Shown here piece by piece: positions 29,693-55,768 of a stretch of 64,000 nt of DNA. The translations under genes were made by a program, and so were the position numbers. The stretch's first letter is position 1; every line of letters starts with the position of its first letter. This DNA is from an uncultured Gemmatimonadales bacterium (GTDB lineage: Bacteria > Gemmatimonadota > Gemmatimonadetes > Gemmatimonadales > Gemmatimonadaceae). The stretch is taken from NCBI GenBank assembly GCA_963701965.1, contig OY969695.1:1792001-1856000 (forward strand). Reading direction: 5' to 3'. Below the pieces are notes generated by a model. The model had not been told where the DNA came from. It did not search any database and saw nothing but the letters and a program-made list of their open reading frames with translations.

Positions 29693-29741
29693 AACGGCAG
29701 GTCGTCGCCGCTCCTCGCGAGACGCGATCTCCAGGGGCAAC

Positions 29742-30211
29742 GTGGTGAAGTACCCCGGCCGACGCGTGAGCAGCTGTCTCGGCACCCGGCAAACCCGACG
29801 TCGACTTCGAGCTCGACCACATTCGTTGGCCCGCCGAGGTCGACAAGAAACGCAAGACCTGGGTCTCGCCGCTTCCAACGGCGCTCAAGCCGGTGCTCCC
29901 CGATTACCACGACCAGTTTGTCGACGATGATTCACCCTACTACTTCCCACACCCAGCCGACCCCTCACGACCCCTCGATAAGGATCGTGCGGATGGACTC
30001 CTCGAGAAGGCATACGAACTGGCCAAGGTCGAGCGAGCGAAAGGCGGGCTGTGGCACCCATTCCGCCGACGCTGGGCGACGCTGCGGAAGAAGCTACCCC
30101 TGTCGGACGTCGCACAGGCGGGGGGGGTGGGATGATGTTCGTACATTGCTGACATGCTACCAACTCGCGGATCCCGAGACACTCCGTCACGTCGCTGATT
30201 ACGACGGCTAG
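29742..30211 (+). pseudogene. Tyrosine recombinase/integrase catalytic domain; 5'-truncated, two +1 frameshifts
   Basis: Reconstructed PGRRVSSCLG..DVDF..IRWPAEVDKK..WHPFRRRWAT..AQAGGW..LLTCYQ (R, K, HxxR, W, Y); shifts near 29795 and in the G8 run 30120-30127; ends 110 bp from att copy A. Confidence 0.85.
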
Positions 30212-30230: not shown

Positions 30231-30383
30231 AACTCACACAAAAGGCCGCGACGATGAGAACTCCACCGTTCGCGGCCCGCTAACTGCTTGTCAGTTCTAC
30301 AACTACGTATCAGTCGAAAACGCGCCCGGAGAGACTCGAACTCCCAACCTTTTGATCCGTAGGCAGAATCCACCGACATCGCG
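30231..30383 (-). repeat. att junction A: arm + exact 42-bp tRNA-Arg(ACG) 3' half (30321-30362) + short arm
   Basis: Identical to 42741-42782; GGCCGCG..CGCGGCC hairpin 30244-30277; right flank gcagaatccaccgacatcgcg. Confidence 0.95.
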
Positions 30384-30423
30384 ATTCCCTCTACTACGAT
30401 CGTCGCTATCTTAGTCGATCGCC

Positions 30424-30780
30424 ATGCCACCCAACGACGTGCGGATATTGCTCGAGCCAGTGTCCCGATCCGAGCTTGCGGACATGGCGGCGCAGGGATT
30501 CGGCGACATGATCAAGGCGGTGGTGGATGTGAGCCAAGCTATCATGGCCGTGGGCGGCGACCTCCATTCCGACGAGGAGGCGGCGCTGCTGGATGCCGGA
30601 TCGCGCCAGAGTGACATCTGGGGAATCAACCTCTATCCGTCGGAACAGACGGACGATTGGATCGAGTTCGACTCCATGATCAACGTGCGACCGGCACAAG
30701 GGAATCGATCACGCTCCGTTGACAATGTCGCATTGCGGACCGAGATCGTACGCATTGTGCGCACGCTCGTCATCGATTGA
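30424..30780 (+). CDS. DUF5674-family protein
   Basis: IKAVVDV..MAVGGDLHSDEE..LL..GSRQSDIWGINLYP..IEFDSMINVRPAQGNRS. Confidence 0.8.
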   Translation: MPPNDVRILLEPVSRSELADMAAQGFGDMIKAVVDVSQAIMAVGGDLHSDEEAALLDAGSRQSDIWGINLYPSEQTDDWIEFDSMINVRPAQGNRSRSVDNVALRTEIVRIVRTLVID

Positions 30781-31142
30781 TGTCGCCACTGCACGCATTG
30801 CTCGCCGGGGGCCGCTGGGCAGAATTGTCCCTCATCGAGCAGCTCGCCAACGTCGGCAGCGAGGTCGAACGCACGTTACTGGCGCATGACGCCGGCCGAA
30901 TCGATCGGCGCGATCACGCTCTCGCTCGCGCGCTCGAGTTGTTCGACCTCACAGCGGTAGATCCGCGTTGGCGTGGCCATCGCCGTCGGGAGATTTTGAG
31001 GGCGCGCGAGTGCTTTTGCGGCGTACTCTTCGCCGAACGCCCCGACCCGGTCAATGCGGTGTTCCTCCGGAAGTACTTTCTGCAGTTCGCGACAGCCGCG
31101 CGCCACGCACGCTTGACCGGTATGCAGAGTCGGCCCACATAG
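30777..31142 (+). CDS. Small helical hypothetical protein coupled to DUF5674
   Basis: TTGATG overlap; RWAELSLIEQLANVGSEVER..RALELFDLT..REILRARE..YFLQFA. Confidence 0.8.
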   Translation: MMSPLHALLAGGRWAELSLIEQLANVGSEVERTLLAHDAGRIDRRDHALARALELFDLTAVDPRWRGHRRREILRARECFCGVLFAERPDPVNAVFLRKYFLQFATAARHARLTGMQSRPT

Positions 31143-31143
31143 T

Positions 31144-31269
31144 CACAGACACACGAAGGCCGCGAAGGTGAGGAAATCCACCAGCGCGGCCTGGGCTAAC
31201 TACCTGCGGGTTTTGAGGTTGTACGAAGGCGCCCGGAGAGACTCGAACTCCCAACCTTTTGATCCGCAG
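31144..31269 (-). repeat. att junction B: arm + tRNA-Arg(ACG) 3' half (31229-31269, 40/41)
   Basis: Arm about 80% identical (hand alignment) to 42656-42740; one mismatch, in the anticodon loop. Confidence 0.95.
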
Positions 31270-31422
31270 GCAAGCTCCACCGAGGCTGCGTTTCACTCGA
31301 CGACCACCCGTAAGTACCGACATTACCGCGAGATCGCGTCGTCCCCTGCCGTACTTCCCTCGCGGAGATGACGAGCTTCACCGGCTGTAAGACGCACAGA
31401 TACCGAGCGACGTTCGCCCGTC

Positions 31423-34559: not shown

Positions 34560-34619
34560 CCGGAGAGCCTCGAACTCCCGACCTTTTTGATCCGTAGGTC
34601 AGAATCTACGGACATCGCG
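34560..34619 (-). repeat. att junction C: degenerate tRNA-Arg(ACG) 3' half (34560-34597) + short arm
   Basis: ccggagagcctcgaactcccgacctttttgatccgtag (2 substitutions, 1 extra T); flank gtcagaatctacggacatcgcg resembles junction A. Confidence 0.9.
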
Positions 34620-34887
34620 TTTTGATGGTCGAGTACCGCCGACGCAAACCGCGAATATGGCACCAATGCCCCGTCATTTCGATCAATGCGCGCATGGCAC
34701 ACATCGACTCAAGATTGACGTTCTTGCCCCTCGGGAGACCCAATGCCGCCGCGCATATTGCATGCGTCATGCGAGACCGGGCATGGAACCGATGATGACT
34801 CCCGCGCTGGTGCCACTCGCCGCACGCTTCCGACCCTTGACGGCCGTGTTGTTGTGTCTCGCCGGGCGCCCGGCGAGATTGGCTGGC

Positions 34888-36405: not shown

Positions 36406-36445
36406 TGCGGCGCGATCGGACCGCTGCCAAACCGCGCGCCCGATC

Positions 36446-36613
36446 CGCCTCAATGCCATCGATCTCGCACGCGGCATCGTGATGGTGCTCATGGGGCTCG
36501 ATCACACGCGCACGTACGCTTTCAGCCGCGCGCACAATCCCGTCAATGAGCGGCGAAGGATCGACGGATGGGATACGCCGATCGCGAGCCTCCGCGCGAT
36601 CGAGCGGCCCTAG
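36446..36613 (+). pseudogene. DUF1624 N-terminal remnant
   Basis: RLNAIDLARGIVMVLMGLDHTR, then loss of similarity and a stop. Confidence 0.7.
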
Positions 36614-38328: not shown

Positions 38329-38452
38329 CGTCGCCGCCATCGAGCGACAGGCGATCTGGCGATCCTTGATCGTTCATCCATGAGGCCGAGGCGCCGTTCC
38401 GCGCGTCAGCCTGTTGAATGGGACCAACTGCTGCTTCGAGTGACATGCACCA

Positions 38453-39349
38453 ATGACGACTCAGATCGTACGCGAAACACGTCGCATTGTCCCCACGCTT
38501 GCCCTGGCGACGGCCGGGTGCCTGTGGGGCACAGGATTCTTGTTCGGTAAGGTCGCCTTGAGCGAGATGCCGGTCGCCGACATGGTCTTGTTCCGCTTCG
38601 TGTTCGCCTGCGCGGCATTGGCGCCCTGCATCTTCTTGCACCGCCCTCGCTTTGCCCGAACCGAATGGGCTTGGGTGCTGGCCGCGGCGGTATTGGGGGT
38701 ACCGGTCCAGTACCTCGTCCAGTTCAAGGGGTTGTCGCTCACCACGGTCTCGCAAGCGTCTCTCATGGTCGGCACGTTGCCGATGCTGCTGGCAGTCGCC
38801 GCCGTGACATTCTCGGGCGAGCGATTGCAACCCAGTGGCTGGGTTGCGCTCGCCGCTTCGAGTGTTGGCGCGGGATTGATCGCGCTGTCGAACCAGACGG
38901 CCTCGGGGACGACGCACGCGAGCGCGCTCGGCGACCTGCTGGTTGTCCTGTCGATGTTTGCCGTCATCGCCTGGATACTGATTTCGAAGCGTCTCATGCA
39001 GCGGCACGCGGCCGTGATGGTGACCGCATTCGTGTATTGGATCGGCACCGGCATTCTGGCGACGGTGGTCGTGGGCACCCTCGGCGTTCCCTCCTTCCAT
39101 TATTCGCGTCGCGCCTGGCTCGCGGTGGCAGAGCAAGGGTTATTGGCCACCGCCGTCACGACGCTGCTGTGGAACTGGGGCCTCAAGCGGGTTCCGGCAT
39201 CGCGCGCGGGAATATTCGTAAACTTGGAACCTCTCGTGGGCGCAATCCTCGGCGTGCTGGTGCTGCACGACGTGTTGGGAAGCACGGGACTCGTCGGCGG
39301 TGCGCTGATTATTGGTGGGGCCGCCTACTTCAGCTACACGAACACCTAA
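38453..39349 (+). CDS. EamA/DMT transporter
   Basis: Two EamA repeats; LWG, GDLL, NLEP motifs. Confidence 0.9.
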   Translation: MTTQIVRETRRIVPTLALATAGCLWGTGFLFGKVALSEMPVADMVLFRFVFACAALAPCIFLHRPRFARTEWAWVLAAAVLGVPVQYLVQFKGLSLTTVSQASLMVGTLPMLLAVAAVTFSGERLQPSGWVALAASSVGAGLIALSNQTASGTTHASALGDLLVVLSMFAVIAWILISKRLMQRHAAVMVTAFVYWIGTGILATVVVGTLGVPSFHYSRRAWLAVAEQGLLATAVTTLLWNWGLKRVPASRAGIFVNLEPLVGAILGVLVLHDVLGSTGLVGGALIIGGAAYFSYTNT

Positions 39350-39648
39350 GCCGATATGCATCTTGCCCGACTCGACATCTGGTGAACATTCACGAGTCGA
39401 CACCTGCGCCAGTTTCGCAATCTCATGCACGCGGGCGCGGTGCAACGGCTATCTCAAACGTGCAATAGAGGCACCGCCTACGCCGCCTATGGCACCGTTG
39501 AGATGGTCGCGTCCGCGCTTGAGTAGCAGCACCCGACGCGAGACACACACACCACATTCTGACAGCGGCCATCATGGCCACCGAGACTTTAAGCAAATCG
39601 TATATCCGGCCGCCATCACGCTGGAATATCATCCCCGCACCGAACTAG

Positions 39649-41142
39649 TCATCGACTGATGCTACTCTCGTTGACTACGAACGAGCAGTCCGGAGCATTG
39701 TTCGGACCGAGAGGCCCAGGCGGGCAGACCTTGCTAAAGGTGTAGCGTTTGAATGTTTGGCTAGGCTCCATCGCAGCGTAGTACTGTGCGAAGTCGTTCC
39801 ATGCGCGTGCGACCTGGTAGCCGTCGAGCGTGAAGAGTCTTGGCGCGCCTGGCTCCTTCAGATCCGCAATCTCGAGTGTGATGATTGGCAATCGCGCTGC
39901 GGAGTCAGGGCCGAACACGCTGGCGTCATAGACGTAGTACCCGCGGTCCGCTACATCTTTGAGTGAAACCCAACGATCGGCGACGAGCACCGGAATCGGA
40001 TCGTGCCCGCCGAACAACGGTGAGACGACCATCGATCCACGATGCAGTTTGACACCACGCACGTCCGCTTGATACTTGAGAGTGGCTGACGGATCGACGC
40101 CGAGGAGACTTCGGCTCAAGCTGCGAAGGATAGTGCTTCCAAGAGTCTCCGCGATCCGCGGGTACACTGAAATCGAGATTACGGCCCGCGCGTTGTGCCC
40201 AACGAAGGTATCCCAGTCATGCATCGTGAGCACTTCGTCCTGATACCGCTCCTCCTGTGGGATCTCAGCCTTCGCTTCTCGTTGCGCGCGATCATGCGTT
40301 ATCTCACGAAAACGACTCTCGCGCTTGATCAGGTCCGACACCGGTGTCGAGATCGCAACCACGAACGGGCCGGCGTCCATGGCGTCAAAGGACTCGAAGG
40401 CATCGGGCTTGGCACTATCAAGCAAGGCTTTGAGCAATCGCGTCGGGTACGGACGCGAGGAGAGTACCGGCAGGACGTCCGCAATCGGAGGAGGCATCGA
40501 CCGCAGTGATTCCCGCGCGTGATCGAAGAGCACGGCGAGTCGATCTACCGGGATCGCCCCGTATATTCCTGCTCCATGTCCTTCCGTGGCAACGAACGTG
40601 TTGATCGCGATAACCTCGCCGGCGAGGTTGAGCAACGGACCGCCAGAGTTTCCCGGATTCAAATTCACATCCGTGATGATGGCGCCCGATTGGACATTGC
40701 TGACAATGCCGGCTGTTATCGACAAGGGCTCATCAAGCGGATAGCCCAGCGCAACCACATGCTGTCCGGGTCGGGTCAGCGTCGTGGCGGCGGGCGCGAG
40801 TCTCAGCCCGACGCACTGGCTGCATCGATTGAGGTCGATCTTTAGGAGTGCGAGGTCCGCGACCAGGTCCTCGTCAACTACCCGTGCCGGTACGCGCGTC
40901 GCAGAATCCACGTACACCGAGATGTCGGACTGGGCATTGATGACGTGCGCGTTTGTGACGAGTAACCCGCCGAGCGAATCCACGAGGAAGGCGGTTCCCG
41001 AGCGCAAGCCGGCGCTGACAGCGAAGACCGCATGAAGACCGTGCTCGTACAATCCAATCTCGGGTTGGTCTTGTGCACAGGCGCTTCGTGGCGATGTCAG
41101 GCTGATAGATAGAGCAGCCACCACGACCGTTGGTCGCCTCAC
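39649..41142 (-). CDS. Trypsin-like (S1C) serine protease with unrecognised C-terminal region
   Basis: GTAF, TNAHV, DLALL, NPGNSGGPL triad; signal peptide; no PDZ recognised. Confidence 0.85.
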   Translation of the reverse strand: MRRPTVVVAALSISLTSPRSACAQDQPEIGLYEHGLHAVFAVSAGLRSGTAFLVDSLGGLLVTNAHVINAQSDISVYVDSATRVPARVVDEDLVADLALLKIDLNRCSQCVGLRLAPAATTLTRPGQHVVALGYPLDEPLSITAGIVSNVQSGAIITDVNLNPGNSGGPLLNLAGEVIAINTFVATEGHGAGIYGAIPVDRLAVLFDHARESLRSMPPPIADVLPVLSSRPYPTRLLKALLDSAKPDAFESFDAMDAGPFVVAISTPVSDLIKRESRFREITHDRAQREAKAEIPQEERYQDEVLTMHDWDTFVGHNARAVISISVYPRIAETLGSTILRSLSRSLLGVDPSATLKYQADVRGVKLHRGSMVVSPLFGGHDPIPVLVADRWVSLKDVADRGYYVYDASVFGPDSAARLPIITLEIADLKEPGAPRLFTLDGYQVARAWNDFAQYYAAMEPSQTFKRYTFSKVCPPGPLGPNNAPDCSFVVNESSISR

Positions 41143-41297
41143 GCGTAGTCCTCACAGTTTGGGCGCGCCTGGACACCGACAACCTGATCGTCTTCGGTCG
41201 AGAATATGTCATGACTATTCGCACGCCGGAAGGATGGACGCATCACCGGTCTCACGCGTCTGAGGGCGACTCTGGGCCGTCGTCGTGCGATACCTTG

Positions 41298-42548
41298 CTA
41301 CGTTACGGTCCACCAGGGCGTGGCCAGCACGCGCTCGGTGAGCCAGAATGCTCGATCGCCGCCGTGGAGTAACACGCCCCCGCGCACCGTGGGTCCCGAT
41401 TCCGCTACAAACCGATCGAGATGCACGCCGTCGCGAGGCGTCGGCGACGCACTCGCCTTCACTTCGACCCCAAGCAGCGACCCACGCCGCTCAATCACGA
41501 AGTCGACCTCTGTGCCGCCCGCCGTACGGTAATACGTCACTTCCGGGCGCGGCGTCTCGGTATCGCGCCATGCGAGGAGATCCGAAAGGATGTAGTTCTC
41601 CAAGTGCGCACCCGTCGGTTCACCGCCGCCGACGTGCAGCGCGAGACCGGTGTCGCTCCAGTACAGCTTCGGTGTCTTGATCAGGCGCGTGGTGCGGTTG
41701 CGTGCGTACGCGGGCAGGCGTACTGCCTGATAGGACGTCTCCAGGAGGTTGAGGTACTGGTGCGCGGTGGTCGACGGCATGCGGACATCGCGCGCCAACT
41801 CGGTCGTGTTGAGCAAGTTGCCGATCCGGAGGGCGCCAGCGCGCATCAAGGCCTGGAAGTCCTGCAGATTGCCAACGGCCTTGAGATCTCGCAGGTCCCG
41901 TTCGAGGTAGGTGGCGACATAGCCATCGAACCACAGCGCCCGAGCCGCGTCGCTGACCGCGCCAATGGCGACGGCGGGGAACCCACCGCGGCGCACCATT
42001 TCTCGCCAGTCAGCGGCTGGCGCCGGGTCAGCGCGCACGAGATCGAGCCAGTCGGCGCGCGGCGTATCGAAAAATCGGGTCCACGCACCGGTCTCGCCCA
42101 GGCCGAGCGCTTCACGGCGCGTCAACGGGCCCAACCGCAGATACGCGGCGCGGCCGGCTAAGGAATCGCCGACCTGGTGCATCATAAGAAGATTGGCCGA
42201 ACCGGTGAGGACGAATCGTCCGTGTCGCGCCGGCCGGTCTTCGTCGACCAACCGCTTGATCGCGAGGACGAGTGCGGGGTCACGCTGCACCTCATCGACG
42301 ATCATTGCCGGTTCGCTCAAGAGGAACGCGCGGGCGTCACGGCGCGCCGCGAGGAGGGCGACGGGGTCGTCGAGTGTCACATACGGTCGATCGGCGGACG
42401 CCGGGTGAGTCGCGACGAACGTGCTCTTTCCGGCCTGACGCGGGCCGGTGACGACGACAACACGTACGCTCGCTAGCGCTGCCGCGTACGTGCGGCCGAG
42501 TGCGCGTGGCAGGACGCCAGCGTCAGATCGCCAGGGTAGGTCGACCAT
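41298..42548 (-). CDS. AAA_14 ATPase with DUF4143 (restriction-endonuclease-like) C-terminus
   Basis: GPRQAGKST, VDEVQ, LTGSA, GGFP, TPKLYWSDTGL, EVDFV..VEVK. Confidence 0.92.
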   Translation of the reverse strand: MVDLPWRSDAGVLPRALGRTYAAALASVRVVVVTGPRQAGKSTFVATHPASADRPYVTLDDPVALLAARRDARAFLLSEPAMIVDEVQRDPALVLAIKRLVDEDRPARHGRFVLTGSANLLMMHQVGDSLAGRAAYLRLGPLTRREALGLGETGAWTRFFDTPRADWLDLVRADPAPAADWREMVRRGGFPAVAIGAVSDAARALWFDGYVATYLERDLRDLKAVGNLQDFQALMRAGALRIGNLLNTTELARDVRMPSTTAHQYLNLLETSYQAVRLPAYARNRTTRLIKTPKLYWSDTGLALHVGGGEPTGAHLENYILSDLLAWRDTETPRPEVTYYRTAGGTEVDFVIERRGSLLGVEVKASASPTPRDGVHLDRFVAESGPTVRGGVLLHGGDRAFWLTERVLATPWWTVT

Positions 42549-42603
42549 TATGACAATATACACATGTCATGTAGATAATCAACACCAGACATGTAGATTA
42601 TCA
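42546..42603. promoter_or_regulatory. 22-bp-period direct repeats upstream of the ATPase
   Basis: CATGTAGATAATCA (42568) and CATGTAGATTATCA (42590); weak third copy at 42546. Confidence 0.55.
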
Positions 42604-42643
42604 GCCGCCTGCCAGTGCGTCCGATCGAACCGCCTTTCAATGT

Positions 42644-42740
42644 AACAGACACAGAAACAGACACACGAAGGCCGCGAAGGCGAGAACATCCACCGGCGCG
42701 ACCTCGGACTAACTGCTTACAGCTTTTGATGTTGTGCTAA
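42644..42740 (-). terminator. Element arm just downstream of tRNA-Arg(ACG): terminator-like hairpin plus AACAGACACA x2
   Basis: Hairpin AGGCCGCG..CGCGACCT 42669-42704; 10-mers at 42644 and 42656. Confidence 0.6.
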
Positions 42741-42814
42741 CGCGCCCGGAGAGACTCGAACTCCCAACCTTTTGATCCGTAGTCAAATGCTCTATCCAAT
42801 TGAGCTACGGGCGC
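42741..42814 (-). tRNA. tRNA-Arg(ACG)
   Basis: GCGCCCG acceptor, TTTGA-CTACGGA-TCAAA anticodon arm, GTTCGAGT T-loop; 74 nt. Confidence 0.97.
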
Positions 42815-42830
42815 AAATGCTCAAGTTCCA

Positions 42831-42904
42831 TGGGCGGTACAAGACTCGAACTTGTGACCTCCACGATGTCAACGTGGCGCTCTAACCAACTGAGCTAACC
42901 GCCC
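42831..42904 (-). tRNA. tRNA-Val(GAC)
   Basis: GGGCGGT acceptor, CCACG-TTGACAT-CGTGG anticodon arm. Confidence 0.97.
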
Positions 42905-45320: not shown

Positions 45321-46142
45321 ATGAGCGCGTCGGCCGACCAGCTTCCGTGCCTGGCGGTCTTTGCCCCGCCAACCCGCGAGCGCGCCCGCGTGCTGGCGCG
45401 GGCGGCATTCTCGCGGCGGCGCGCCCGATTGGTGTTCGTCCGCACCGCCGCCGAACTGGCCCAAGCCTTTCGCGGTGAGCTGATCGACGCGGCGTTGCTC
45501 GATCTCGGCGCACCGAGCGGCGCGGGCGCCGCCACCGACGATACCTGGCGCGCCGCGGAGCTGGCGCGCGACTTCCCGAGCGCCGCGTTCTTCGCGGTGA
45601 CCCCGCTCCGCGTCGCCGATGCCCGCACCGTCGCCCGCTGCGCCGAGCTGGAGTTCGCCGACGTCCTCGTCGATGGCGTGGACGACGGCGTCACGCGCGA
45701 CCTGGTCACGCCGCACCTCTTTCGCGCCCGCTTCGCCGAAGCGCTCCGCGACCCGCCTGCCGCGCTCCGCCTGACATCGCCACTACAACAGAAAACGTGG
45801 CGCTGCATCGTCAACCACGCTGGACTCCCCGTACGCACCGACACCGTCGCCGCCGTCGTCGGCGTCACGCGCGAGCACCTGAGCCGCGCGTTCGCCGCCG
45901 ACCTCGCGCCGAACCTCAAGCGCGTCATCGACCTCGTGCGCCTCATCGCGGCGGCCGAACTGGCGAAAAACCCCGGCTACGATATCCGCGACGTGGCCCT
46001 GGTCCTCCGATTCGCCTCCGCGTCGCACCTCTCCAGCACCGCCCAACGCGTCGTCGGCATGCGTCCGACCTCGCTGGCCCGCCTCCGCACGGTCGATCTC
46101 TTCGAGCGGTTCGCCGCCGGTCGTGGCAAAAGCCGCAGCTGA
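45321..46142 (+). CDS. AraC-type HTH regulator with receiver-like N-terminus
   Basis: VAAVVGVTREHLSRAF and VALVLRFASASHLS double HTH. Confidence 0.8.
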   Translation: MSASADQLPCLAVFAPPTRERARVLARAAFSRRRARLVFVRTAAELAQAFRGELIDAALLDLGAPSGAGAATDDTWRAAELARDFPSAAFFAVTPLRVADARTVARCAELEFADVLVDGVDDGVTRDLVTPHLFRARFAEALRDPPAALRLTSPLQQKTWRCIVNHAGLPVRTDTVAAVVGVTREHLSRAFAADLAPNLKRVIDLVRLIAAAELAKNPGYDIRDVALVLRFASASHLSSTAQRVVGMRPTSLARLRTVDLFERFAAGRGKSRS

Positions 46143-46172: not shown

Positions 46173-46246
46173 GCGCGCGTAGCTCAGTTGGATAGAGCGT
46201 CGGCCTCCGGAGCCGAAGGTCGTGGGTTCGAATCCCGCCGCGCGCA
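46173..46246 (+). tRNA. tRNA-Arg(CCG)
   Basis: GCGCGCG acceptor, TCGGC-CTCCGGA-GCCGA anticodon arm, GTTCGAAT. Confidence 0.97.
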
Positions 46247-46368
46247 TCGTTTGTGGCGTCATAGTGGGCCCTGAGACTGGCCGCGTGGGGCACGTTCGCT
46301 GCGCCGATTGCCCCATTTGCTGCAACCGATCTGTCGTACTCGGTGATGCAAACTCAAAATAGCAGCAT

Positions 46369-47094
46369 ATGTCAATCTCGCTGCTCCGCGCACTCGGCGC
46401 CGTGTTGCTCGGTGCCTCGACCGCCGCCGCTCAAGAAGCTCGAGTCGAATACACCGTTCAGCCGTCCTTCACCCTCGATACGCGACACGTACCCGACTCC
46501 GGCGTGGTCCGCTACCTGGTCACCGACCGGCGCGACAGCACGAAGCAAGTCGGCACCATCACATACGCGTATCGCGCGCTCACCATCGGCGGCGCTCCGG
46601 CGCTCGAGCGGGCCGAGACATGGCAGTTCGGCGCCAACGCGGCCGTCGACACCGTGGTGGTATTTCGCCGCACGCTGGCGCCGATCCGGCAGCATGCCTG
46701 GACGCGAGGTGTCGAGTCAGAGCGCACGTACGACGGTCGGCGTGTCCAGCGCCGTCCGGGCTGGGGACAGGTCCGCGATTCCACCTTGACCGAGACGCGA
46801 ATGCTGCCCACGCCGATATTTTCAGCTTCGATCGGCGACCTTCTGGCGGCCGCGGTGCCGCTCGTCGACGGCTACACCGCCGTCGTCCCATCAGAGGCCG
46901 ATCAGGAACCGGGCTTCGAGCGCGACACGATTCGCGTGACCCGCGATGACGGCGCGTCGCATCGCTGGACGGTCCACTTCGTCGACCCATTCCTCATCGA
47001 GACATTCATCGTCGATGAACGGACGCGCCGCATCATCGAGTGGGACATGCGACGACGCGATGGCCGGATCGACTGGCGACTGATGCCGCGCTGA
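46369..47094 (+). CDS. Hypothetical secreted beta-rich protein
   Basis: Signal peptide MSISLLRALGAVLLGASTAAAQ; fills the mini-island. Confidence 0.8.
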   Translation: MSISLLRALGAVLLGASTAAAQEARVEYTVQPSFTLDTRHVPDSGVVRYLVTDRRDSTKQVGTITYAYRALTIGGAPALERAETWQFGANAAVDTVVVFRRTLAPIRQHAWTRGVESERTYDGRRVQRRPGWGQVRDSTLTETRMLPTPIFSASIGDLLAAAVPLVDGYTAVVPSEADQEPGFERDTIRVTRDDGASHRWTVHFVDPFLIETFIVDERTRRIIEWDMRRRDGRIDWRLMPR

Positions 47095-47111
47095 TCGCGC
47101 GTGCAGTCGTC

Positions 47112-47155
47112 GCCTCCGGAGCCGAAGGTCGTGGGTTCGAATCCCGCCGCGCGCA
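47112..47155 (+). repeat. att copy: 3' 44 bp of tRNA-Arg(CCG)
   Basis: Exact match to 46203-46246. Confidence 0.97.
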
Positions 47156-47312
47156 CTCCTAATCCTGACAAACACGTTGGCCCCGTGGCGCCCGGCGGCG
47201 CGGCGAAGGGGACTCTGCGCCGCACCGTCGCGCCGTCGCATGTTACTATTTCGCTATTTCGCGTCGCGACGAAATGATATAGAATAGGCGAGCGGCAGAC
47301 AACAGGAGAAAA

Positions 47313-48456
47313 ATGATGCCGAAGCCGATGCGGGATTTCGACCTGGAGGTCCACTTCGCGAAGTGGGAATTCGTCGCCAAGTTCAATCTGGCAGGATCGG
47401 ATGCCGAGACCCTGCGCCTGGGTGCGCTGTTGGAGCTCGCGAGCGCCGAGGACCGCGACGCGTTCGACACGCTCAGTCTCGCGTATACCGAGACGCGGGG
47501 TGCACCGGCGCTCCGAGAGCAGATTGCCACCACGTACGACACGTGTACGCCGGATCACATCCTGTGTTTCGCGGGCGCGGAAGAGCCCATTTACACGGCT
47601 ATGCGGGTGCTGCTCAGTCCTCAGGATCACGCCATCGTGATCACGCCCAACTACCAGGCCGCCGAAACGGTGCCGCTCAGTATTTGCCAGGTCACCGGAG
47701 TCCCACTCGAGGCGCAGCGTGGCTGGGCGCTGGATCTCGACCGCCTGCATGCCGCTTTTCGTCCCAACACGCGCGTGGTCGTCATCAATTTTCCGAACAA
47801 CCCGACCGGCAAGATTATCCCGCGCGCGCAATTGGAGGCGATCGTCGAGTTCTGCCGCCAGCGGGGCATTCTGGCTGTTCAGCGACGAGGTCTTTCGACT
47901 GATCGAGCGCGATGCCGCCCTTCGGCTGCCGCAGGCGGTCGACGTGTACGAGCGCGGCATCTCGTTGAATGTGATGTCGAAGGCGTACGGGCTCCCCGGA
48001 TTGCGCATCGGTTGGCTGGCCTGCAAAGATCGTTCGCTGCTGCTCAAGCTGGAGCGCTACAAGCACTACCTGTCGATCTGCAACTCCGCGACCTCGGAAG
48101 TGTTGGCGCGCATCGCCCTCAAGGCCCGAGACACGCTGCTGACCCGCAACCGTCAGGTGGTCGATCACAATCTCGCGGCGCTGGATGTGTTTTTCGACGA
48201 GCATGCGCACCTGTTCGATTGGCACCGACCGGATGGAAGCTGCGTTGGGTTTGTCCGATACAAAGGTCCGGAGGGTGTCGAAGACTTCGCGCGGCGCCTG
48301 GTGGAGGAGTCGAGTGTGCTGCTGCTGCCGGCGAGTGTCTTCCGCTCGGAGTTGAACGACGTCCCGTCGGACTACTTTCGCCTGGGGTACGGACATTCGA
48401 ACGTTCCCCAGGGGCTCGAGGTCATGCGTGGTTGGCTACAACGCACCGGGCGATGA
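47313..48456 (+). pseudogene. Class I/II PLP aminotransferase with +1 frameshift at about 47870; may be sequencing error
   Basis: NFPNNPTG before the shift; WLFSDEV..MSKAYGLPGLRIGW after; RBS AGGAGA. Confidence 0.88.
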
Positions 48457-48906
48457 GAGTGTCGCGATCAATTCGATTTCCACCGCGACGCCCATGGGCA
48501 GGCTCATGACGCCGACGGTGGTTCTCGCGTGGCGACCCGCATCGCCGAATACAGCGATCAAGAGCCTCGAGGCCGCATCGGTGACCTGTGGCAGATCCTG
48601 GAAGTCCGGCGCGCAATTCACGTAGCCGTTCAATTTTCGTATCTGCCGAATCGCGTCCAGGGAACCAATCGCGTGGTGCAGCGAGGCCAGACACCCGAGG
48701 ACCGCGCTCTCCGCCGCGCGTTGGCCTGTCACCAGGTCGAGCTCGCACCCGACTTTCCCCCTGTACAGAAATTGCCCATCGGCGAACGGCGCGTGGCCGG
48801 ACACGAACGCCAGGTCGTCGACCACGCTGACGCGCAGGAACTCATGCGTCGGAGCGAGATCAGGCAGGGTGAGGTTCAGCCGTTGCAGTTGGTCGTAGAC
48901 GCTCAT
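48436..48906 (-). CDS. RidA/YjgF-like protein (long subfamily)
   Basis: FVSGH, GKVG, KLNGYVN, GRHARTTVGV.SLP..VEIE. Confidence 0.9.
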   Translation of the reverse strand: MSVYDQLQRLNLTLPDLAPTHEFLRVSVVDDLAFVSGHAPFADGQFLYRGKVGCELDLVTGQRAAESAVLGCLASLHHAIGSLDAIRQIRKLNGYVNCAPDFQDLPQVTDAASRLLIAVFGDAGRHARTTVGVMSLPMGVAVEIELIATLSSPGAL

Positions 48907-50027
48907 AACGCCTGGGTGATGTCGGCGATCAAATCGTCAGGGTGCTCGAGTCCGATCGACAGGCGCAGGAGGTTCTCCACCAAGCCGGTGCCGACGCCGT
49001 GTGTGGGGCTCGATGCTTGGTGTTGGATGAGGCTCTCTACGGCACCAAAACTGGCCGCGTGTCGGAAGATCTTGACGTTCGCGCATACGGCCCGCGCCGC
49101 CTCCCGTCCACCGCGCACCTGGATGGAGATGATCCCACCAAAACCGCCCGACAGCTGACGTTTCGCCAGAGAGTGCTGCGGATGGGATGCCAGCCCCGGA
49201 TAGTGGACGACCTCGAGCGATGGATGGTGCTCGAGCGCCCTGGCGATGGTGAGCGCACTCTCCGCGTGCGCGCGCATGCGGTGGGCGAGGGTCTTGATAC
49301 CCCGATGCACTAGCCAGCAGTCGAATGGAGACGGTACCGCTCCTTCGAGGACTTGGATGCGCCGAATCTCATCGATCGGATCACCCGGCGTTCCGGCCAC
49401 GACCACGCCGCCCAAGACGTCTCCGTGTCCACCCATGTATTTCGTCGTGGCATGGACGACGAGGTCGACTCCGCTCCTCAGGGGTCGCTGAAAGATTGGC
49501 GTCACGAACGTGTTGTCGACAACGCTCAGTGCGCCGAACCGGTGCGCGAGCTCCGAGATCACGCTCAGGTCGGTGACGTTGAGCAGCGGATTCGACAGCG
49601 TCTCCATCCACACCAGCCTCGTGTTGGCTTGCAGGGCGCGCTCGACCGCCGTCACGTCGGTCATATCCACGGCCGTATGCGTGAGATTCCACCTCGGCAG
49701 CACCTGTGTCAGGAGCCGCACCGTGCCCTGAAACACATCGGCCGGGATCACCACGTGGTCGCCTGGCTTCAACGTCCGCAAGATGGCGGTGATCGCCGCA
49801 CTACCCGACGCGAAGGCGACCGCCACCGACCCACCTTCGAGCGCCGCACACGCGGACTCGAGTCCGTCGCGGTTGGGGTTCCCCTTGCTGGAGTAGGTGT
49901 ATCCGCGACGGTATTCGCCATCACCGTCACGCTCGAAGGTCACCGACAGGTTGATCGGCGGAGCGATGGCGCCCGATGCGTCATCGACGCTGGCCCCGCC
50001 ATGAACGGCTATGGTCTCGATGTTCAT
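48903..50027 (-). CDS. Cys/Met-metabolism PLP enzyme (cystathionine gamma-synthase/lyase family)
   Basis: ETLSNP, VDNTF, HATTKYMGGHGD, SFGAVESL, RLSIGLE. Confidence 0.92.
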   Translation of the reverse strand: MNIETIAVHGGASVDDASGAIAPPINLSVTFERDGDGEYRRGYTYSSKGNPNRDGLESACAALEGGSVAVAFASGSAAITAILRTLKPGDHVVIPADVFQGTVRLLTQVLPRWNLTHTAVDMTDVTAVERALQANTRLVWMETLSNPLLNVTDLSVISELAHRFGALSVVDNTFVTPIFQRPLRSGVDLVVHATTKYMGGHGDVLGGVVVAGTPGDPIDEIRRIQVLEGAVPSPFDCWLVHRGIKTLAHRMRAHAESALTIARALEHHPSLEVVHYPGLASHPQHSLAKRQLSGGFGGIISIQVRGGREAARAVCANVKIFRHAASFGAVESLIQHQASSPTHGVGTGLVENLLRLSIGLEHPDDLIADITQAL

Positions 50028-50031
50028 GGGC

Positions 50032-50381
50032 TCATCGATCGCGCCGCAGCACCTGGAGCTGGAATCTCCTCATGAACTGCAGGAGCGCCTGCTCGTCCCG
50101 CCGATAGAAGGTCCACCCCTTCTTGCGCGTTGCAATCAACATCCCGGCGTCCGCCAGGATCGCGAATGCCGCGACGCGGTCGCCGGCGCGACACCGATCT
50201 TCGCCTGAATGGCACCCGCACAGGCGCCATCGCGAATCAGATCGCCATCCTCTTGCGGCGGGAAATTCGCGATCGGATCTTCGAGGTATGCGAGAATCGC
50301 GAGCCGCACGGGACAGGACAGAGCCCTGACGCCCTTGATCAGCGCCCCCGGTGGTTTGCTGGCCACTTCGCTACTTCGCAT
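50032..50381 (-). pseudogene. ArsR-family regulator with two -1 frameshifts (about 50165 and 50117)
   Basis: RALSCPVRLAIL..IGVAPATASRH / AILADAGMLIATRKK / WTFYRRDE across frames. Confidence 0.75.
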
Positions 50382-50685
50382 AACAACGAATTTACCCAAC
50401 GGGGACGAAGCAGGCAAGCGCCGCACCCTAGTGGCCGAGTAGCTCGCCGAGTAGCCGCGGCGACACCGCACTCGGTGCCACGCCCAGCTCATCGCGCAGG
50501 AGCTTGCGCAGGCGCTCGGAGACCCACTCCGCCGCCTCCCGCACTGCCCGCTCCCGTCCCTGCTGGGCATACACCTGTTGGGGCACCTCAAGGCCGAGAC
50601 TCGCTGCGATCGTGGATTCCACGGCGTGCGCTCGCATGAACGACGCTGCTGAAACTAGAATCGAAATGCAGCGTAGTGTCGCATC

Positions 50686-51600
50686 ATGCAAGCGATATTT
50701 CTTGGACCTCACGGTCTCCGCGCCGGCTGGCGCACGTTGATCTTTATTGGACTGTTCGTGATCGTTGCGTTTGGTCTGTCTCACCTGCTCGCCGGGACGG
50801 TAAAGGATCTCGTAGCGCAGAGCGGAGGCCAGACCGGCCCGCGCGTCTCCCTATTGAGGGAATTGCCGCTCATCGCTGGCGTGCTGGTCGCCACGTGGAT
50901 CATGGCACGGGCGGAGCATCGCCCATTACTTGCTTATGGCATGGCCGATTGCCGCGCCCTCGCGCGGTTCATGAACGGGACTTTGTCGGGATTCCTGGCA
51001 ATCAGCGTCGAGATCGGACTGTTGGCCGCCTCCGGCCATCTGGTATTCGAGGGCCATGCGCCGGACGCGTTGACTGCTATCCGGTTTGCGGCCGAGTGGG
51101 GCGTCTTCTACCTGCTCGTCGCGCTGGTGGAGGAGAACCTATTGCGGGGGTATCTCCAACAGACGCTCGCGCGCGGCATGGGCTTCTGGCCGGCGGCGGT
51201 TCTCCTGTCGCTCGCCTTCGGTGCTCTGCACGCGGGGAACTCGGGCGAGGAGATCATTGGGCTGCTGGGCGCTGCCGTGGGTGGGTTCGTGCTGGCCTAC
51301 AGCCTCTGGCGCTCGGGATCGCTCTGGTGGGCGATCGGCGCGCACACCGGCATCGGATGGGCGGAATCGTATTTCTACGGCACGCACAACAGCGGCATCG
51401 CCTCGTCCCCCCGTTTCCTGGCGACGCACCCCGTGGGAGCAGGTTGGCTGAGTGGCGCGACCGTCGGCCCTGAAGGCAGCATTTTCTTTCTACTCCTCCT
51501 GCTCGCCCTCGTGCCGGTGATCCGCTGGACGCTTGCGCCGACTGACGTCCGCGACGCGCGACCCCGGTACGCGGCCGCGGATTCGGTGCCGGAGCGATAG
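50686..51600 (+). CDS. CPBP (Abi/CAAX) intramembrane metalloprotease
   Basis: EENLLRGY, FGALH, AIGAH, GPEGS. Confidence 0.92.
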   Translation: MQAIFLGPHGLRAGWRTLIFIGLFVIVAFGLSHLLAGTVKDLVAQSGGQTGPRVSLLRELPLIAGVLVATWIMARAEHRPLLAYGMADCRALARFMNGTLSGFLAISVEIGLLAASGHLVFEGHAPDALTAIRFAAEWGVFYLLVALVEENLLRGYLQQTLARGMGFWPAAVLLSLAFGALHAGNSGEEIIGLLGAAVGGFVLAYSLWRSGSLWWAIGAHTGIGWAESYFYGTHNSGIASSPRFLATHPVGAGWLSGATVGPEGSIFFLLLLLALVPVIRWTLAPTDVRDARPRYAAADSVPER

Positions 51601-51639
51601 CCCGGCTCGTAGTACGCGTACCCGCGATCGGCGGTGACA

Positions 51640-51770
51640 TACGGACGCCCGCACGGCCACTTTGGCCCGCGCCAGCGACTCGGCGAACCGCGCGTCGTGA
51701 AACGGTTTCATGAGATAGTCGACAGCATGGACATCGAACGCCCGCCCCGCGTACCGATCGTAGGCGGTGT
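51640..51770 (-). pseudogene. LytTR response regulator receiver fragment
   Basis: TAYDRYA.RAFDVHAVDYLMKPF..RF..SLARA only. Confidence 0.7.
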
Positions 51771-51818
51771 CCCCGAACCCCCGAACGACGTTGAGGCTGA
51801 CGTAGTCACCCGCGCACA

Positions 51819-52466
51819 TCAACGCGAGCCGATGCCATGCTCTTTCAGCTTGTCAGCAAGCTGTAAGAGTTCCACGGTGGATCGCCCGGACCGGATGCCG
51901 CGCCGCAGGGCCCTCTCCGTCGTTTCCCGGCGCCGCGCGGCAGCAAGCACGTCCCCGAGGTTCGCGCGGGGCACCACTACGATGCCATCCCGGTCCCCCA
52001 CGATGACGTCGTCCGGTCGGATCTCCACGCCTCCGCAGTCGATAGGGACGTTGACGGATCCCGAGGCGTTCTTCTGCGGTCCCGTGATCGAAACGCCGCG
52101 CGCAAACACGGGAAACTCAAGGGCGAGGATCGCTTCGGTATCGCGCACCGCTCCGTCTATGACCAGGCCCTGGACGCCCACCTGCTGGGCGGCCAACGTC
52201 AAAATGTCACCCCATGCCGCGGAGTCGGTATGCCCGTGCGCGTTCACCACCAGCACGTCGCCCGGCCGCGCCCGGGTCAGCGCGTAATGCACGATGAGGT
52301 TATCACCCGGTCGCGCATCGACCGTCAGCGCAGGGCCGGCTACTCGTCGACGAGGATCGATCGGCTTGATCGCGGCTGGTAACGCTCCCGTCTGGCCTTG
52401 CGCTTCGTGGATGGTCGCCGTTCCGAATCGCGCCAACATCTCGAGGGGGGACGGGCGAGCACGCAT
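51819..52466 (-). CDS. RraA/HMG-CHA aldolase (LigK-like)
   Basis: GTATIHEAQG, PGDNL, WGD, DGAVRD, GDRDG. Confidence 0.9.
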   Translation of the reverse strand: MRARPSPLEMLARFGTATIHEAQGQTGALPAAIKPIDPRRRVAGPALTVDARPGDNLIVHYALTRARPGDVLVVNAHGHTDSAAWGDILTLAAQQVGVQGLVIDGAVRDTEAILALEFPVFARGVSITGPQKNASGSVNVPIDCGGVEIRPDDVIVGDRDGIVVVPRANLGDVLAAARRRETTERALRRGIRSGRSTVELLQLADKLKEHGIGSR

Positions 52467-53856
52467 TGCGATGGGAGTCAAGGGGTGGCCGTCGTTGATG
52501 CCAAGGGGTGGCGTCCTGATAGGCGCTCGCGACGGCGAGTACGCGTTCGTCTTCGCCGACTCGGCCAATGCACTGCATGGCCAACGGCAGTCCCGCTGGC
52601 GAGAAGCCAACGCACAGGGAAAGAGCCGGATGACCGGTGAGATTGAACGGAATGCGCCATACGCCCTGAGCGGACCGCTCGAGGGCCGTCTCGTCATCCA
52701 TCCGACACGCCGGCGCGGCGACGACAGGGGTCGCGAGCAGGTCGCACGAGGCGAATAGCCGGTCCACCGCCCCGCGGAACGATACCCGCCGTCGGAGCGC
52801 CGCCTCGTACACGCGCCGGGGAATCGAGGCGCCGAGCTCGAGCGCGCGGCGGCAGCGTTCTCCATAACGATCGGGCGCCGCGACCAGCCGCGACCGATGC
52901 AGCGCATAGGCCTCGTAGTGGAGAATAGTCTGAGCGGTGCGCCGCAGTGCTCGGACATCGTCAAGCTGTACTTCGTTGACCTCGGCGCCCAGTGTCTCGA
53001 GGACGGCACAAGCCGAGTCGATGGCAACGCGCGTGTCCTCGTCGGCGCGCGTGTCCTCGTCGGCGCGTGCATCCTCTTGGTCGACAGGCTTCAGCTTGCC
53101 GATGCGACATCCCGCCAGCGCGCGACCCGAACCCATGAATGGCGCAGCGTCGCGGTGGCAGTCGAGAACCCGCAGCAGGAGCCGGCAATCCTCGGCGGTC
53201 CGGGTCATCAGACCAACGTGATCGAGGCTCGGCGCCAGGGCGAGCACGCCGTCGCGGCTCACGCGATCGTACGTCGGCTTGAGGCCCGTTACGCCGCACA
53301 GTGCGGCCGGATTACGAATCGACCCTCCCGTATCGGTGCCGATCGCGAGCGGCACGAGGCCGGCGGCGAGCGCCGCGCCGCAGCCGCTCGAGGAACCCCC
53401 CGGCGTGCGCGAGGGATCCCACGGATTGCGCGCGGGCGGCCACGGCAGGTCGTCGAGCGGCGAGCCAACGCCGCATTCCTCCAAAGACAACTTGCCGATG
53501 AGGATAGCCCCCGCGTCGCGCAAACGGCACACGATGGCGGCATCCCGATGCGCGATCGCGCCGGCGAACGCTCGCGATTGCGCGCGCGTCGAACGGCCCT
53601 GCACGTCGACGACATCCTTGAGCGCAAATGGGATGCCTGCCACCGGTGACAGATGCCGCCCGCTGACGCGCGCCGCATCGATCCGCCGAGCGGAGGCCAA
53701 CGCGTCCTCGGCGTACACCTCTATGAAGGCATGGACCCATCCATTGGTGTGCTCGATGGCGCGAAGTAACTCGACGACATATTCCTGGGCCGAGAGCCGC
53801 CCCGCGTCGAGGAGCGTGCCCGCCTCGCACGCCGAGAGGAAACGCACGTCGGTCAT
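52303..53856 (-). CDS. Amidase-signature family enzyme; natural end probably near 52480
   Basis: ALKD, PGGSSSG, GTDTGGSIRNPA; reads 164 nt into the next gene after WHQRRPPL, suggesting a lost stop. Confidence 0.9.
   Translation of the reverse strand: MTDVRFLSACEAGTLLDAGRLSAQEYVVELLRAIEHTNGWVHAFIEVYAEDALASARRIDAARVSGRHLSPVAGIPFALKDVVDVQGRSTRAQSRAFAGAIAHRDAAIVCRLRDAGAILIGKLSLEECGVGSPLDDLPWPPARNPWDPSRTPGGSSSGCGAALAAGLVPLAIGTDTGGSIRNPAALCGVTGLKPTYDRVSRDGVLALAPSLDHVGLMTRTAEDCRLLLRVLDCHRDAAPFMGSGRALAGCRIGKLKPVDQEDARADEDTRADEDTRVAIDSACAVLETLGAEVNEVQLDDVRALRRTAQTILHYEAYALHRSRLVAAPDRYGERCRRALELGASIPRRVYEAALRRRVSFRGAVDRLFASCDLLATPVVAAPACRMDDETALERSAQGVWRIPFNLTGHPALSLCVGFSPAGLPLAMQCIGRVGEDERVLAVASAYQDATPWHQRRPPLDSHRNACSPVPPRDVGAIRNGDHPRSARPDGSVTSRDQADRSSSTSSRPCADGRCATG
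53028..53067. repeat. 18-bp tandem duplication inside the amidase (RADEDT x2)
   Basis: cgcgcgtgtcctcgtcgg x2 plus cgcg. Confidence 0.9.
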
Positions 53857-55028
53857 CGCAGCGGTCTGAAGAACGCTCGGATGTCTTCCGCCAGCAGATG
53901 CGGCACTTCCATCGCGGCAAAGTGGCCCCCGCGCGGCAACGTGGTCCAGTGAACGAGATTGAACGCGCGCTCGACCCAACAGCGCGGCGGCATCGGCAAC
54001 TCCCGGGGAAGACGGACGATGCCGCACGGCGGCGCGATGCGCTGGCCCGCCTCGAGATGCAGCGGCGCCAATCGCGTCTCGCGGTACAGCCGGATCGACG
54101 AATGCGCAGACCCGGTGAGCCAGTAAATCATGACGTTGGTCAACAGCTCGTCGAGGGTGAACGCCTCAGTCGGTTCGTCGGTACAGTCGCTCCAGCGCTG
54201 AAATTTCTCTATGAGCCACGCCGCGAGACCGATCGGGGAGTCGGTCAGCGCATAGGCAAGCGTCTGCGGCTTGGTCGCCTGGATGGCGTAGTACGCGCCT
54301 TCGGCATCGCGCCATTGAGCCGTTCGCTCCAAATAGTCGGACTCCCCGTCCGTCAACGGCGGCGTGCCCGGCGCGAGGTCCGGTCGAAATCCCACCGACA
54401 GGTAGTTCAGGTGTATGCCCTTTACCCGCTCGGGATGACGGAGACCGACTGCCGTGCTGATCGACGAGCCCCAATCGCCGCCTTGGACGCCAAATTGCCG
54501 GTGACCCAGCGCCGTCATCAGCTCGGCCCACATATCGGCAATAGCAAAGACGTTCGTGCCGCGGCGCCTCGGAGGACTCGAAAATCCATATCCTGGAATC
54601 GAGGGCACGACGACGGTGAAGGCATCGCTCGCGCTGCCCCCGTGCGCCTCAGGGTCCGTGAGGAACGGAATGATCTTCAGCATCTCCACAAAACTGCCCG
54701 GCCAGCCGTGCGTGAGTACCAACGGCATCGGGTCGGATCCGCGACCAGTCTCGCAGATGAAGTGCACGCGTTGCTCACCGCGTTCGTACTGAAAGTGAGC
54801 AAACTCGTTCAGCCGCCGCTCTGCCTTGTCCCAGTCATAATCCTGCAGCCAGTATGCATGCAGCCGTTGCATGAAGGAGAGGTCGGCGCCCTCCTCCCAG
54901 CGCATATCCTCGAGCGCGTCCGGCCAGCGCACGGCGCGGAGCTTGTCCTGGAGCGCAGGAAGCGCCGCCGGATCGGCCCGCACACGAAACGGCAGGATAG
55001 CCCCGGAACGACTCGCCTCGACACCCAT
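53853..55028 (-). CDS. Epoxide hydrolase (microsomal EHN type)
   Basis: HGWPGS, PGYGFS, QGGDWG, DSPIGLAAW, GGHFAAME. Confidence 0.95.
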   Translation of the reverse strand: MGVEASRSGAILPFRVRADPAALPALQDKLRAVRWPDALEDMRWEEGADLSFMQRLHAYWLQDYDWDKAERRLNEFAHFQYERGEQRVHFICETGRGSDPMPLVLTHGWPGSFVEMLKIIPFLTDPEAHGGSASDAFTVVVPSIPGYGFSSPPRRRGTNVFAIADMWAELMTALGHRQFGVQGGDWGSSISTAVGLRHPERVKGIHLNYLSVGFRPDLAPGTPPLTDGESDYLERTAQWRDAEGAYYAIQATKPQTLAYALTDSPIGLAAWLIEKFQRWSDCTDEPTEAFTLDELLTNVMIYWLTGSAHSSIRLYRETRLAPLHLEAGQRIAPPCGIVRLPRELPMPPRCWVERAFNLVHWTTLPRGGHFAAMEVPHLLAEDIRAFFRPLR

Positions 55029-55089
55029 TTCACACCTCGCGCACGACGCCTGTTGCGGGACCGGCCAACTGTGCCTACAATATATAGAT

Positions 55090-55103
55090 AATTGTCGACA
55101 ATT
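55090..55103. promoter_or_regulatory. Perfect palindrome AATTGTCGACAATT; candidate GntR operator
   Basis: 14-bp dyad at the GntR start in the divergent promoter region. Confidence 0.7.
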
Positions 55104-55748
55104 TCTCCAGGTTTGGTCGAGCAGGTCCGCGGCGCCTTACAGGAGTTGATCCTGTCCGGCGAAGTCCGCGCGGGCGAGCGGCTCAATGAACTCGAGCTCG
55201 CCGGCCGATTCCGCATCAGCCGCGGACCGATCCGCGAAGCGATCCGCGCGCTCGAACACGCGCGCCTCGTCACGGTCGTCCCCAATCGCGGAGCGATCGT
55301 CCGCCGCGTGGATTTGCCGGATGTGCTCGACCTCTACGACGTGCGCGCGGGACTTGCCCGGTCCGCCGGGCGACTGCTCGCCGCCCGAGCCACGAACGCG
55401 CAAATGACTGCCCTGCGGACGCTACACGAGCGTATGCGTCGTGCGGCAGCCACTCACTCGGTCGCCGCCTTCCACTCGGCCAATCGCCGGTTTCACGATG
55501 CGATTCTGGAGTTCGCCGGCAATGCCCGCCTCCGAGAGATCGATCAGTCCGTACGCGATGAACTGCAACTCTACATCCGCCGCGGCAGCCTGGGAGCTGC
55601 GCAGCTCCGGGCCTCGATCGCCGAGCATGACGCCTTTTTGGAGGCGGTTTCGACGGGAGACGCGGACGCCGCGGGTCACGCGCTCGAGCAACACATCCTG
55701 AATGGCAGGCAACGGATGCTCGACAACGTGCAGTCAGGCGAATCCTGA
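55092..55748 (+). CDS. GntR-family regulator (FCD domain)
   Basis: GERLNE..ISRGPIREA..PNRGA; NRRFH, EH, HI FCD residues. Confidence 0.93.
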   Translation: MSTISPGLVEQVRGALQELILSGEVRAGERLNELELAGRFRISRGPIREAIRALEHARLVTVVPNRGAIVRRVDLPDVLDLYDVRAGLARSAGRLLAARATNAQMTALRTLHERMRRAAATHSVAAFHSANRRFHDAILEFAGNARLREIDQSVRDELQLYIRRGSLGAAQLRASIAEHDAFLEAVSTGDADAAGHALEQHILNGRQRMLDNVQSGES

Positions 55749-55768
55749 CCGCTGCTCTTGTACGCTCG

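Follow-up and report, generated by a model that had tools for sequence, protein, structure and literature searches.

The window analyzed here, a stretch of 64,000 nucleotides from an uncultured Gemmatimonadales bacterium, harbors directly behind a tRNA-Arg(CCG) gene a 909-bp unit with a single cargo gene, which we consider, at a probability of roughly two in three, to be the shrunken remnant of an element once inserted by a tyrosine integrase at the anticodon loop of this tRNA, similar in kind to the cis-mobilizable elements (CIMEs) of streptococci. The target gene is intact (46173..46246, called by ARAGORN with a cloverleaf fold; the plus strand applies to it and to all other parts of the unit), and a repeat search revealed that its 3'-terminal 44 bases (46203-46246), the attL-side copy of a direct repeat, recur without a single difference (44/44) in a displaced, attR-like 3' fragment at 47112..47155, the two copies lying 909 bp apart. 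BLAST likewise recovered the fragment and extended the repeat to 48 of 49 positions with one gap. Between the copies lie a left spacer of 122 bp (46247..46368), likely made up of an eroded attachment arm and the upstream region of the cargo, then the cargo gene (46369..47094), which is the sole long open reading frame between the repeats and encodes a predicted exported beta-sheet protein of 241 aa, distantly related to DUF3108, and finally a right spacer of 17 bp (47095..47111, read from the sequence), which separates the cargo's stop codon from the right repeat. No further copy of this tRNA half occurs within the 61 kb downstream. Among the 14 PF00589 matches in the 5.12-Mb genome none falls in or near the unit, and a C-terminal integrase profile of our own found no match inside it. 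These data confirm the original prediction that an exactly duplicated 3' part of tRNA-Arg(CCG) brackets one gene and no integrase.

The displaced copy begins at position 31 of the tRNA, two bases before the 7-nt anticodon loop (33-39), and this junction is the anticodon-loop signature of tyrosine-integrase islands; by the count given for the Islander collection, the anticodon loop is the commonest tDNA subsite of tyrosine integrases (2083 of 3919 islands, PMC4383910). The unit has the layout that Islander looks for, namely an intact tRNA gene, a 3' fragment in the same orientation that reaches the tRNA end and a crossover in the anticodon loop, but is removed by the Islander filters, having no on-board tyrosine integrase and measuring 909 bp against a range of 2-200 kb. 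Its right spacer is too short for a full integrase arm and ends in a 5-base motif that, upon alignment of the pre-fragment regions, was also found ahead of the corresponding fragment of a congener (G005). No sigma-70-like promoter was detected on the plus strand of the left spacer, and neither spacer folded better than its shuffles (z of 0.43, that of the left one, and -1.44).

The cargo protein matched no Pfam family, scoring below the cut-off of DUF3108 (PF11306), a domain that was matched by 42 of 99 aligned members of its family; judged by these alignments, its relationship to DUF3108 would run through homologues only. Its N-terminus resembles a signal peptide by eye and forms a helix (residues 3-24) in the structure model, and so the protein is predicted to be exported. 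The model (pLDDT 88.6) consists of this N-terminal helix and an open antiparallel sheet, and the nearest solved folds were 9fqr_Xh (Z 14.8) and the DUF1849 protein 6ntr (Z 13.9, rmsd 3.7 over 187 aligned residues), with further matches to LolA/LolB-like folds. Thus, the cargo shares with DUF3108 and DUF1849-like proteins a predicted signal peptide and an open antiparallel sheet, and differs from them in falling below the Pfam threshold and in a TM-score of 0.48. A hydrophobic ligand may be bound by such a sheet, which is our guess from the model. Third-position GC of the gene was 0.79, compared to 0.85-0.87 in two core neighbours. Searches for homologues yielded five close ones at 80-88% identity, one at 99%, and 176 distant ones (E up to 0.001). 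With the cargo as query, 37 of 300 family genomes gave relatives, none above 39% identity, and a scan of the genome collection gave no close homologue; since only distant relatives occur in these family genomes, this cargo subfamily is accessory.

To the left, the unit borders on conserved core DNA, an AraC-type regulator gene (45321..46142, plus strand, Pfam HTH_18) that precedes this tRNA across the genus and has orthologues 78-86% identical in four of five congeners. An extra gene with short collagen-like repeats, recognized by eye, stands between the AraC-type gene and the tRNA in G001 and G003 (L031:3310-3965 and L032:3313-3968) and is missing there in G000 and G002. In several other genera (L063, L073, L074, L078, L089, L090) a single cluster holds tRNAs Ala, Val, Arg(ACG) and Pro(CGG) followed by tRNA-Arg(CCG); the latter is inverted in this genus and sits behind the AraC-type gene, tRNA-Pro(CGG) being located ~148 kb from tRNA-Arg(ACG) in G000. 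To the right, accessory DNA starts with an aminotransferase class I/II gene in two frames (47313..48456, plus strand; open reading frames and Pfam), whose frameshift near 47870 reflects either a pseudogene or an assembly error. The region 47156-56000 found only paralogue-level matches of 68-80% in five congeners, and synteny with the congeners returns ~18.5-21 kb downstream of tRNA-Arg(CCG), in agreement with the prediction that accessory DNA runs on rightwards. Neither the cargo nor the right flank is common to any congener.

That the duplication was produced by the assembly itself seems scarcely credible. It would have in its favor that a single assembly carries the unit and that the nearby frameshift suggests residual errors; against it, a variant of the cargo (P0001, 239 of 241 residues identical) was found on a Logan contig of 925 bp, a length equal to 865 unique bases plus two times 30 and hence, as we infer, that of a unitig bounded by this 44-bp repeat. 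Moreover, a 151-base contig of run X1 corresponds to 47103-47253 without any difference and joins the fragment to the right flank, though it covers only 9 bases left of the fragment, has a depth of 2 and may come from the source sample. The same layout also recurs in congeners, as described below.

To place the unit among its likes, all tRNAs were compared to the genome by BLAST to find end fragments, and integrases were identified by PF00589 and by the C-terminal profile. End fragments were found for about 17 tRNA genes, most 3' fragments beginning at positions 29-34, and 29 tRNA-bounded units of 863-35,185 bp could be delimited in this genome. Nine of them hold a frame of at least 266 aa matching an integrase next to the tRNA end, three hold integrase stubs and 17 hold none; four of the 29 are shorter than 1.3 kb. 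Such a size continuum is what one would anticipate if islands insert and then lose internal parts. The remnant reading is supported both by the position of the CCG junction, which lies at the same subsite as most fragments of the genome, and by a graded decay series of 29 units in one genome. The tRNA-proximal fragment is perfect in 10 of 17 cases, six of these on units lacking a full integrase, which makes a perfect repeat next to no integrase a common arrangement here.

Several further arrangements were observed in the course of this survey. Six tRNA-Asn 3' fragments are stacked over 71 kb together with two integrase frames (G000:C1:3048407-3119908), and a seventh, accompanied by an integrase stub, lies inside a tRNA-Pro(GGG) stack at 4293849. 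Fragments of 5' halves, a minority orientation, lie upstream of tRNA-Cys (two) and tRNA-Ser(CGA) (G000:C1:2405286-2413160 and 493385-500719). A tRNA-Thr fragment is inverted relative to its gene (G000:C1:82103-82151), and a perfect tRNA-Lys(CTT) fragment, remote from its gene, is located where the contig ends (G000:C1:5116436-5116480). Within the window, a degenerate copy of tRNA-Val(GAC) at 17500-17573, called a tRNA by ARAGORN and matching 55 of 59 positions of the gene at 42828-42886, lies 25 kb downstream of that gene and is likely another island end.

The clearest series was found at the neighbouring tRNA-Arg(ACG) (42740..42815, minus strand, ARAGORN), for which BLAST detected four downstream 3' fragments, at 34560-34597, 31229-31273 and 30320-30365, the fourth lying immediately outside the window on its left. 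Two of these (30320-30365 and 31229-31273) bound an 863-bp mini-unit on the minus strand (30320..31273) that carries two genes, DUF5674 and a second one. The original prediction had taken the same minimal layout at an independent nearby tRNA as support for its case, and while this mini-unit is real, it comes third in a stack of units, 11.5 kb away from its tRNA rather than adjacent to it, and belongs to a family with integrase-bearing members. In congener G001 the ACG site is occupied by a 65-kb island, whose 416-aa integrase follows the tRNA, and a profile match in the window (29693..30208, plus strand) is a frameshifted C-terminal stub of the tyrosine integrase of this family, identical to the intact G001 enzyme at 89 of 119 positions (75%); another stub of the family is present in G005. 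A far arm of ~75 bp is common to the G001 island and to units of 1.6, 2.7, 3.0, 3.3 and 7.1 kb in G000, G003 and G005; in the window, the 863-bp mini-unit has kept its near arm, its far arm being reduced to the last ~35 bp. Given the arms shared with the G001 island and the stub in the window, the supposedly parallel ACG case is a derivative of an integrase island family, and this direct series from parent to derivatives lends further support to the remnant reading at CCG.

The members of the ACG family (window 29693-42815, just left of it, and L050, L158, L153, L161, L203 and L204) include integrase-less minis of 0.9-8 kb, and the ~75-bp far arm and a hairpin-forming near arm are conserved across five species. 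The hairpin was also considered as a genome-wide REP element or terminator and rejected as such, strong copies occurring only behind ACG tRNA ends. A 379-bp stretch at G000:C1:1790453-1790831 duplicates window 30888-31266 at 96% and extends over an ACG fragment, the near arm and half of the second gene in the mini. Several integrase-less ACG minis retain full arms and att copies identical at 45 of 46 positions in three species, and this degree of conservation exceeds what passive decay predicts, a point that weakens the remnant reading.

We then compared the CCG site among relatives. Integrase-less units with cargo unrelated to the window's are present there in three of four congeners: a 1.9-kb unit with a 412-aa gene lacking any Pfam match in G001, a 1.1-kb unit with a 208-aa gene in G002 and a 1.2-kb unit with a truncated fragment in G005. 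G003 has none, and the sequence after its tRNA-Arg(CCG) matches that after the G001 fragment, making G003 an empty-site allele for the G001 unit. G001 contains a further degenerate CCG fragment behind a HigBA pair. The congener units have no long arm in common; the G001 near arm matches, at 78%, the arm after a tRNA-Ile fragment in G003, indicating that ordinary island arms reach the CCG site, and its far arm had no other match in the five genus genomes. These arms suggest that CCG is an occasional target of several island families.

In 401 family genomes the CCG pattern was detected in 199, and twice in eight of them, namely three of this genus, one other (G108) and four that are overlaps or a tRNA-Pro event. 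The latter were dropped from the fragment count: in G127, G240 and G380 a single tRNA appears twice in overlapping contig ends, and in G226 (L174:14327-16353) a 1.95-kb insertion at the upstream tRNA-Pro(CGG) has a repeat that also copies the whole of the downstream tRNA-Arg(CCG). True CCG fragments were thereby counted in three of the five genus genomes with a match and in one of 194 others (G108), and at least two ACG copies in 5 of 5 genus genomes and 3 of 91 others, an enrichment that is indicative only, since kin are not independent and repeats may be hidden in fragmented assemblies; these tallies include the unpublished genomes G012, G055, G153, G267 and G313, on which no individual claim depends. 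No CCG fragment was found in 39 loci outside the genus. In G108 (L164, L165) near-identical arms next to two tRNA-Arg(CCG) fragments flank ECF-sigma, FecR and SusC/SusD-like genes (named by eye), and the contigs bearing these fragments showed no integrase.

Our search for an integrase-bearing element at tRNA-Arg(CCG) gave none in 43 loci (tblastn with this genome's integrases; three of the loci extend less than 4 kb downstream, and one 16-base match in L054, E 0.001, was set aside), and no integrase was found downstream of this tRNA in 52 loci. Apart from the ACG integrase, a profile search of loci L031-L182 returned only a short stub and an unrelated match; divergent integrases could have escaped these searches. 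Viral contigs had no match to the 44-bp repeat. A larger integrase-bearing island, the case that had been named as refuting the original prediction, was thus found at ACG and not at CCG in the loci searched, and the lack of an integrase-bearing parent in any CCG locus examined weakens the remnant reading.

These surveys also bear on the proposal of a general gene-capture process, in the form of a dedicated, integron-like system that would build one-gene cassettes at tRNA genes with no large-island stage. Several one- or two-gene minis of ~0.9-2 kb in this genome and its genus, and the genus enrichment at both tRNAs would fit such a system, which we nevertheless regard as highly improbable: the sizes of the units run without a gap up to 35-65 kb, arms vary from tRNA to tRNA and match those of integrase-bearing islands, stubs of integrases are found where they would be expected and no recombinase gene adjoins the tRNA. 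Judged as an integron, the CCG site has no tyrosine recombinase near the tRNA, where an integron integrase with attI would belong, and is flanked by the AraC-type gene; where folded sites of the attC type would separate cassettes, its boundary is a tRNA half. A dedicated capture system at ACG is largely refuted. What stands of the proposal is that integrase-less units are general in this lineage, as seen at this tRNA in three of four congeners and in the 4 of 29 units below 1.3 kb; a separate process is not supported, its ACG case belonging to an integrase-bearing island family.

Having compared the site, we examined the age of its cargo. One close homologue, P0003 (204 of 241 residues identical, 85%), lies in a reading frame that opens with the translated 3' end of tRNA-Arg(CCG), and the translated left spacer of the window can be aligned with the N-terminal extension that P0003 has on its tRNA-proximal side, at a score reached by 2 of 2000 shuffles. 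The P0003 spacer is the longer of the two, and the shortening of this spacer in the window supports the remnant reading. Since a protein diverged by ~15% also lies directly behind the tRNA-Arg(CCG) end, the pairing of cargo and tRNA must be old; through this divergence the cargo has occupied the position where integrases sit in this genome, from which the integrase would have been gone long before the fresh, perfect fragment arose. An old pairing with a fresh repeat is hard to reconcile with a single insertion followed by decay, which weakens the remnant reading in its simplest form, and calls for re-integration, cis-mobilization or gene conversion. The suggestion of a recent event accordingly holds for the last event, young relative to point mutation as judged by the perfect fragment, and less so for the unit, perfect copies being common here and the pairing old.

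A second locus, L051, carries a broken cargo homologue, next to which lie arms of ACG type and the DUF5674 gene pair known from the window's ACG mini. Its arrangement implies that the cargo of the two tRNA-Arg sites was fused at least once. The right joint of the CCG unit contains a 9-base match to the tRNA stem-loop that also occurs in L051, 26 bp past the homologue's stop (chance ~4e-4 within 40 bases), where it is possibly a decayed CCG fragment or else the native end of the gene. The 9-base match, its presence behind the L051 stop and the near lack of a right arm could also speak for an integrase-free origin, by which the left side of an incoming DNA with tRNA and cargo recombined by homology and its right side was joined through microhomology at the anticodon stem, so that the 3' half was duplicated. 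We find this very unlikely, as independent units, those in G001, G002 and G108 and those at a dozen further tRNAs, have their break at this one anticodon-loop position and the L051 match can equally be read as a decayed fragment.

The old pairing also raises the possibility that the unit is a non-autonomous mobile cassette, excised as a small circle and re-integrated by an integrase encoded elsewhere, which would keep its att copy fresh. The best argument for it is precisely the perfect repeat beside an old pairing (P0003), and it gains from five further cargo homologues of 80-99% identity, mostly on short contigs, from the full arms and near-perfect att copies of the integrase-less ACG minis and from the different cargo of congeners at the same CCG site. 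Nonetheless, we deem it rather unlikely for this unit, whose far arm is down to 17 bp and whose near arm is eroded, whose congener counterparts share no long arm and for which the loci searched yielded no CCG-linked integrase. Run X1, at its thin coverage, likewise showed neither a circle nor an empty-site joint. A wider version, in which the genus maintains a standing pool of integrase-less one- and two-gene cassettes at tRNA anticodon loops, long moved by integrases elsewhere and with cargo swapped or fused between the two tRNA-Arg sites in the manner of integron shuffling, would accommodate L051, in which the window's CCG cargo is joined to ACG arms and to the cargo of the ACG mini; this too we hold to be improbable.

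Under the remnant reading, a tyrosine integrase would have inserted an element at the anticodon loop of tRNA-Arg(CCG), restoring the tRNA and pushing the host's old 3' half downstream, and internal deletions would then have removed the integrase, all but 17 bp of the far arm and part of the near arm, sparing the gene for the exported protein. Deprived of its far arm, the unit would probably no longer be a normal substrate for an integrase by itself; recombination between its 44-bp copies could remove it, or it could be carried in cis, should a new element insert at the tRNA and excise together with it. We infer this deletion origin for CCG by comparison, whereas the parent-derivative series is observed at ACG.

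To summarize, the CCG unit is likely of an ordinary, known kind and not the product of a new gene-capture system, a small example of how tRNA hotspots gather single genes by island insertion and decay. Integrase-less units of less than 2 kb are missed by island finders that require an integrase, as the description of Islander indicates (PMC4383910), and a literature search on genomic islands, tRNA and integrases of Gemmatimonadota gave no report of such units by title or opening of the abstract. The tRNA-Arg(ACG) family, with a 65-kb parent, stubs and full-arm minis side by side, offers a test set for mobilization in trans; if minis do move in this way, single genes would be exchanged in this abundant uncultured phylum by a route so far overlooked.

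The closest known counterparts are the CIMEs, described in streptococci as cis-mobilizable elements that undergo tandem accretion (PMC5704250). Going by these accounts, CIMEs and the CCG unit alike hold cargo between att-like copies of the target's 3' end, carry no integrase or transfer genes and stack with intact and decayed relatives. Classical CIMEs are given as highly prevalent and 1.2-13 kb long (PMC7563491), and the unit's 909 bp, below this range, weakens the remnant reading. A CIME also retains both attL and attR, whereas in the CCG unit the core repeat is perfect and the far arm nearly gone, leaving att function doubtful, and a CIME is by its description a deletion derivative of an ICE or IME parent; the CCG unit, likened to CIMEs by its layout, is a putative member. 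Stacked integrase-less units with target-end repeats are likewise reported for Dehalococcoides, with 15 ssrA islands lacking an integration module (PMC3146451), and for SAR11, whose islands contain cassettes marked by partial tRNA repeats (PMC11796062), in both cases with other hosts and targets and, in Dehalococcoides, with serine recombinase modules. With the subsite A islands of Islander, whose stated filters are an on-board integrase and a length of at least 2 kb (PMC4383910), the CCG unit shares the displaced 3' fragment in the same orientation and the crossover at the anticodon loop.
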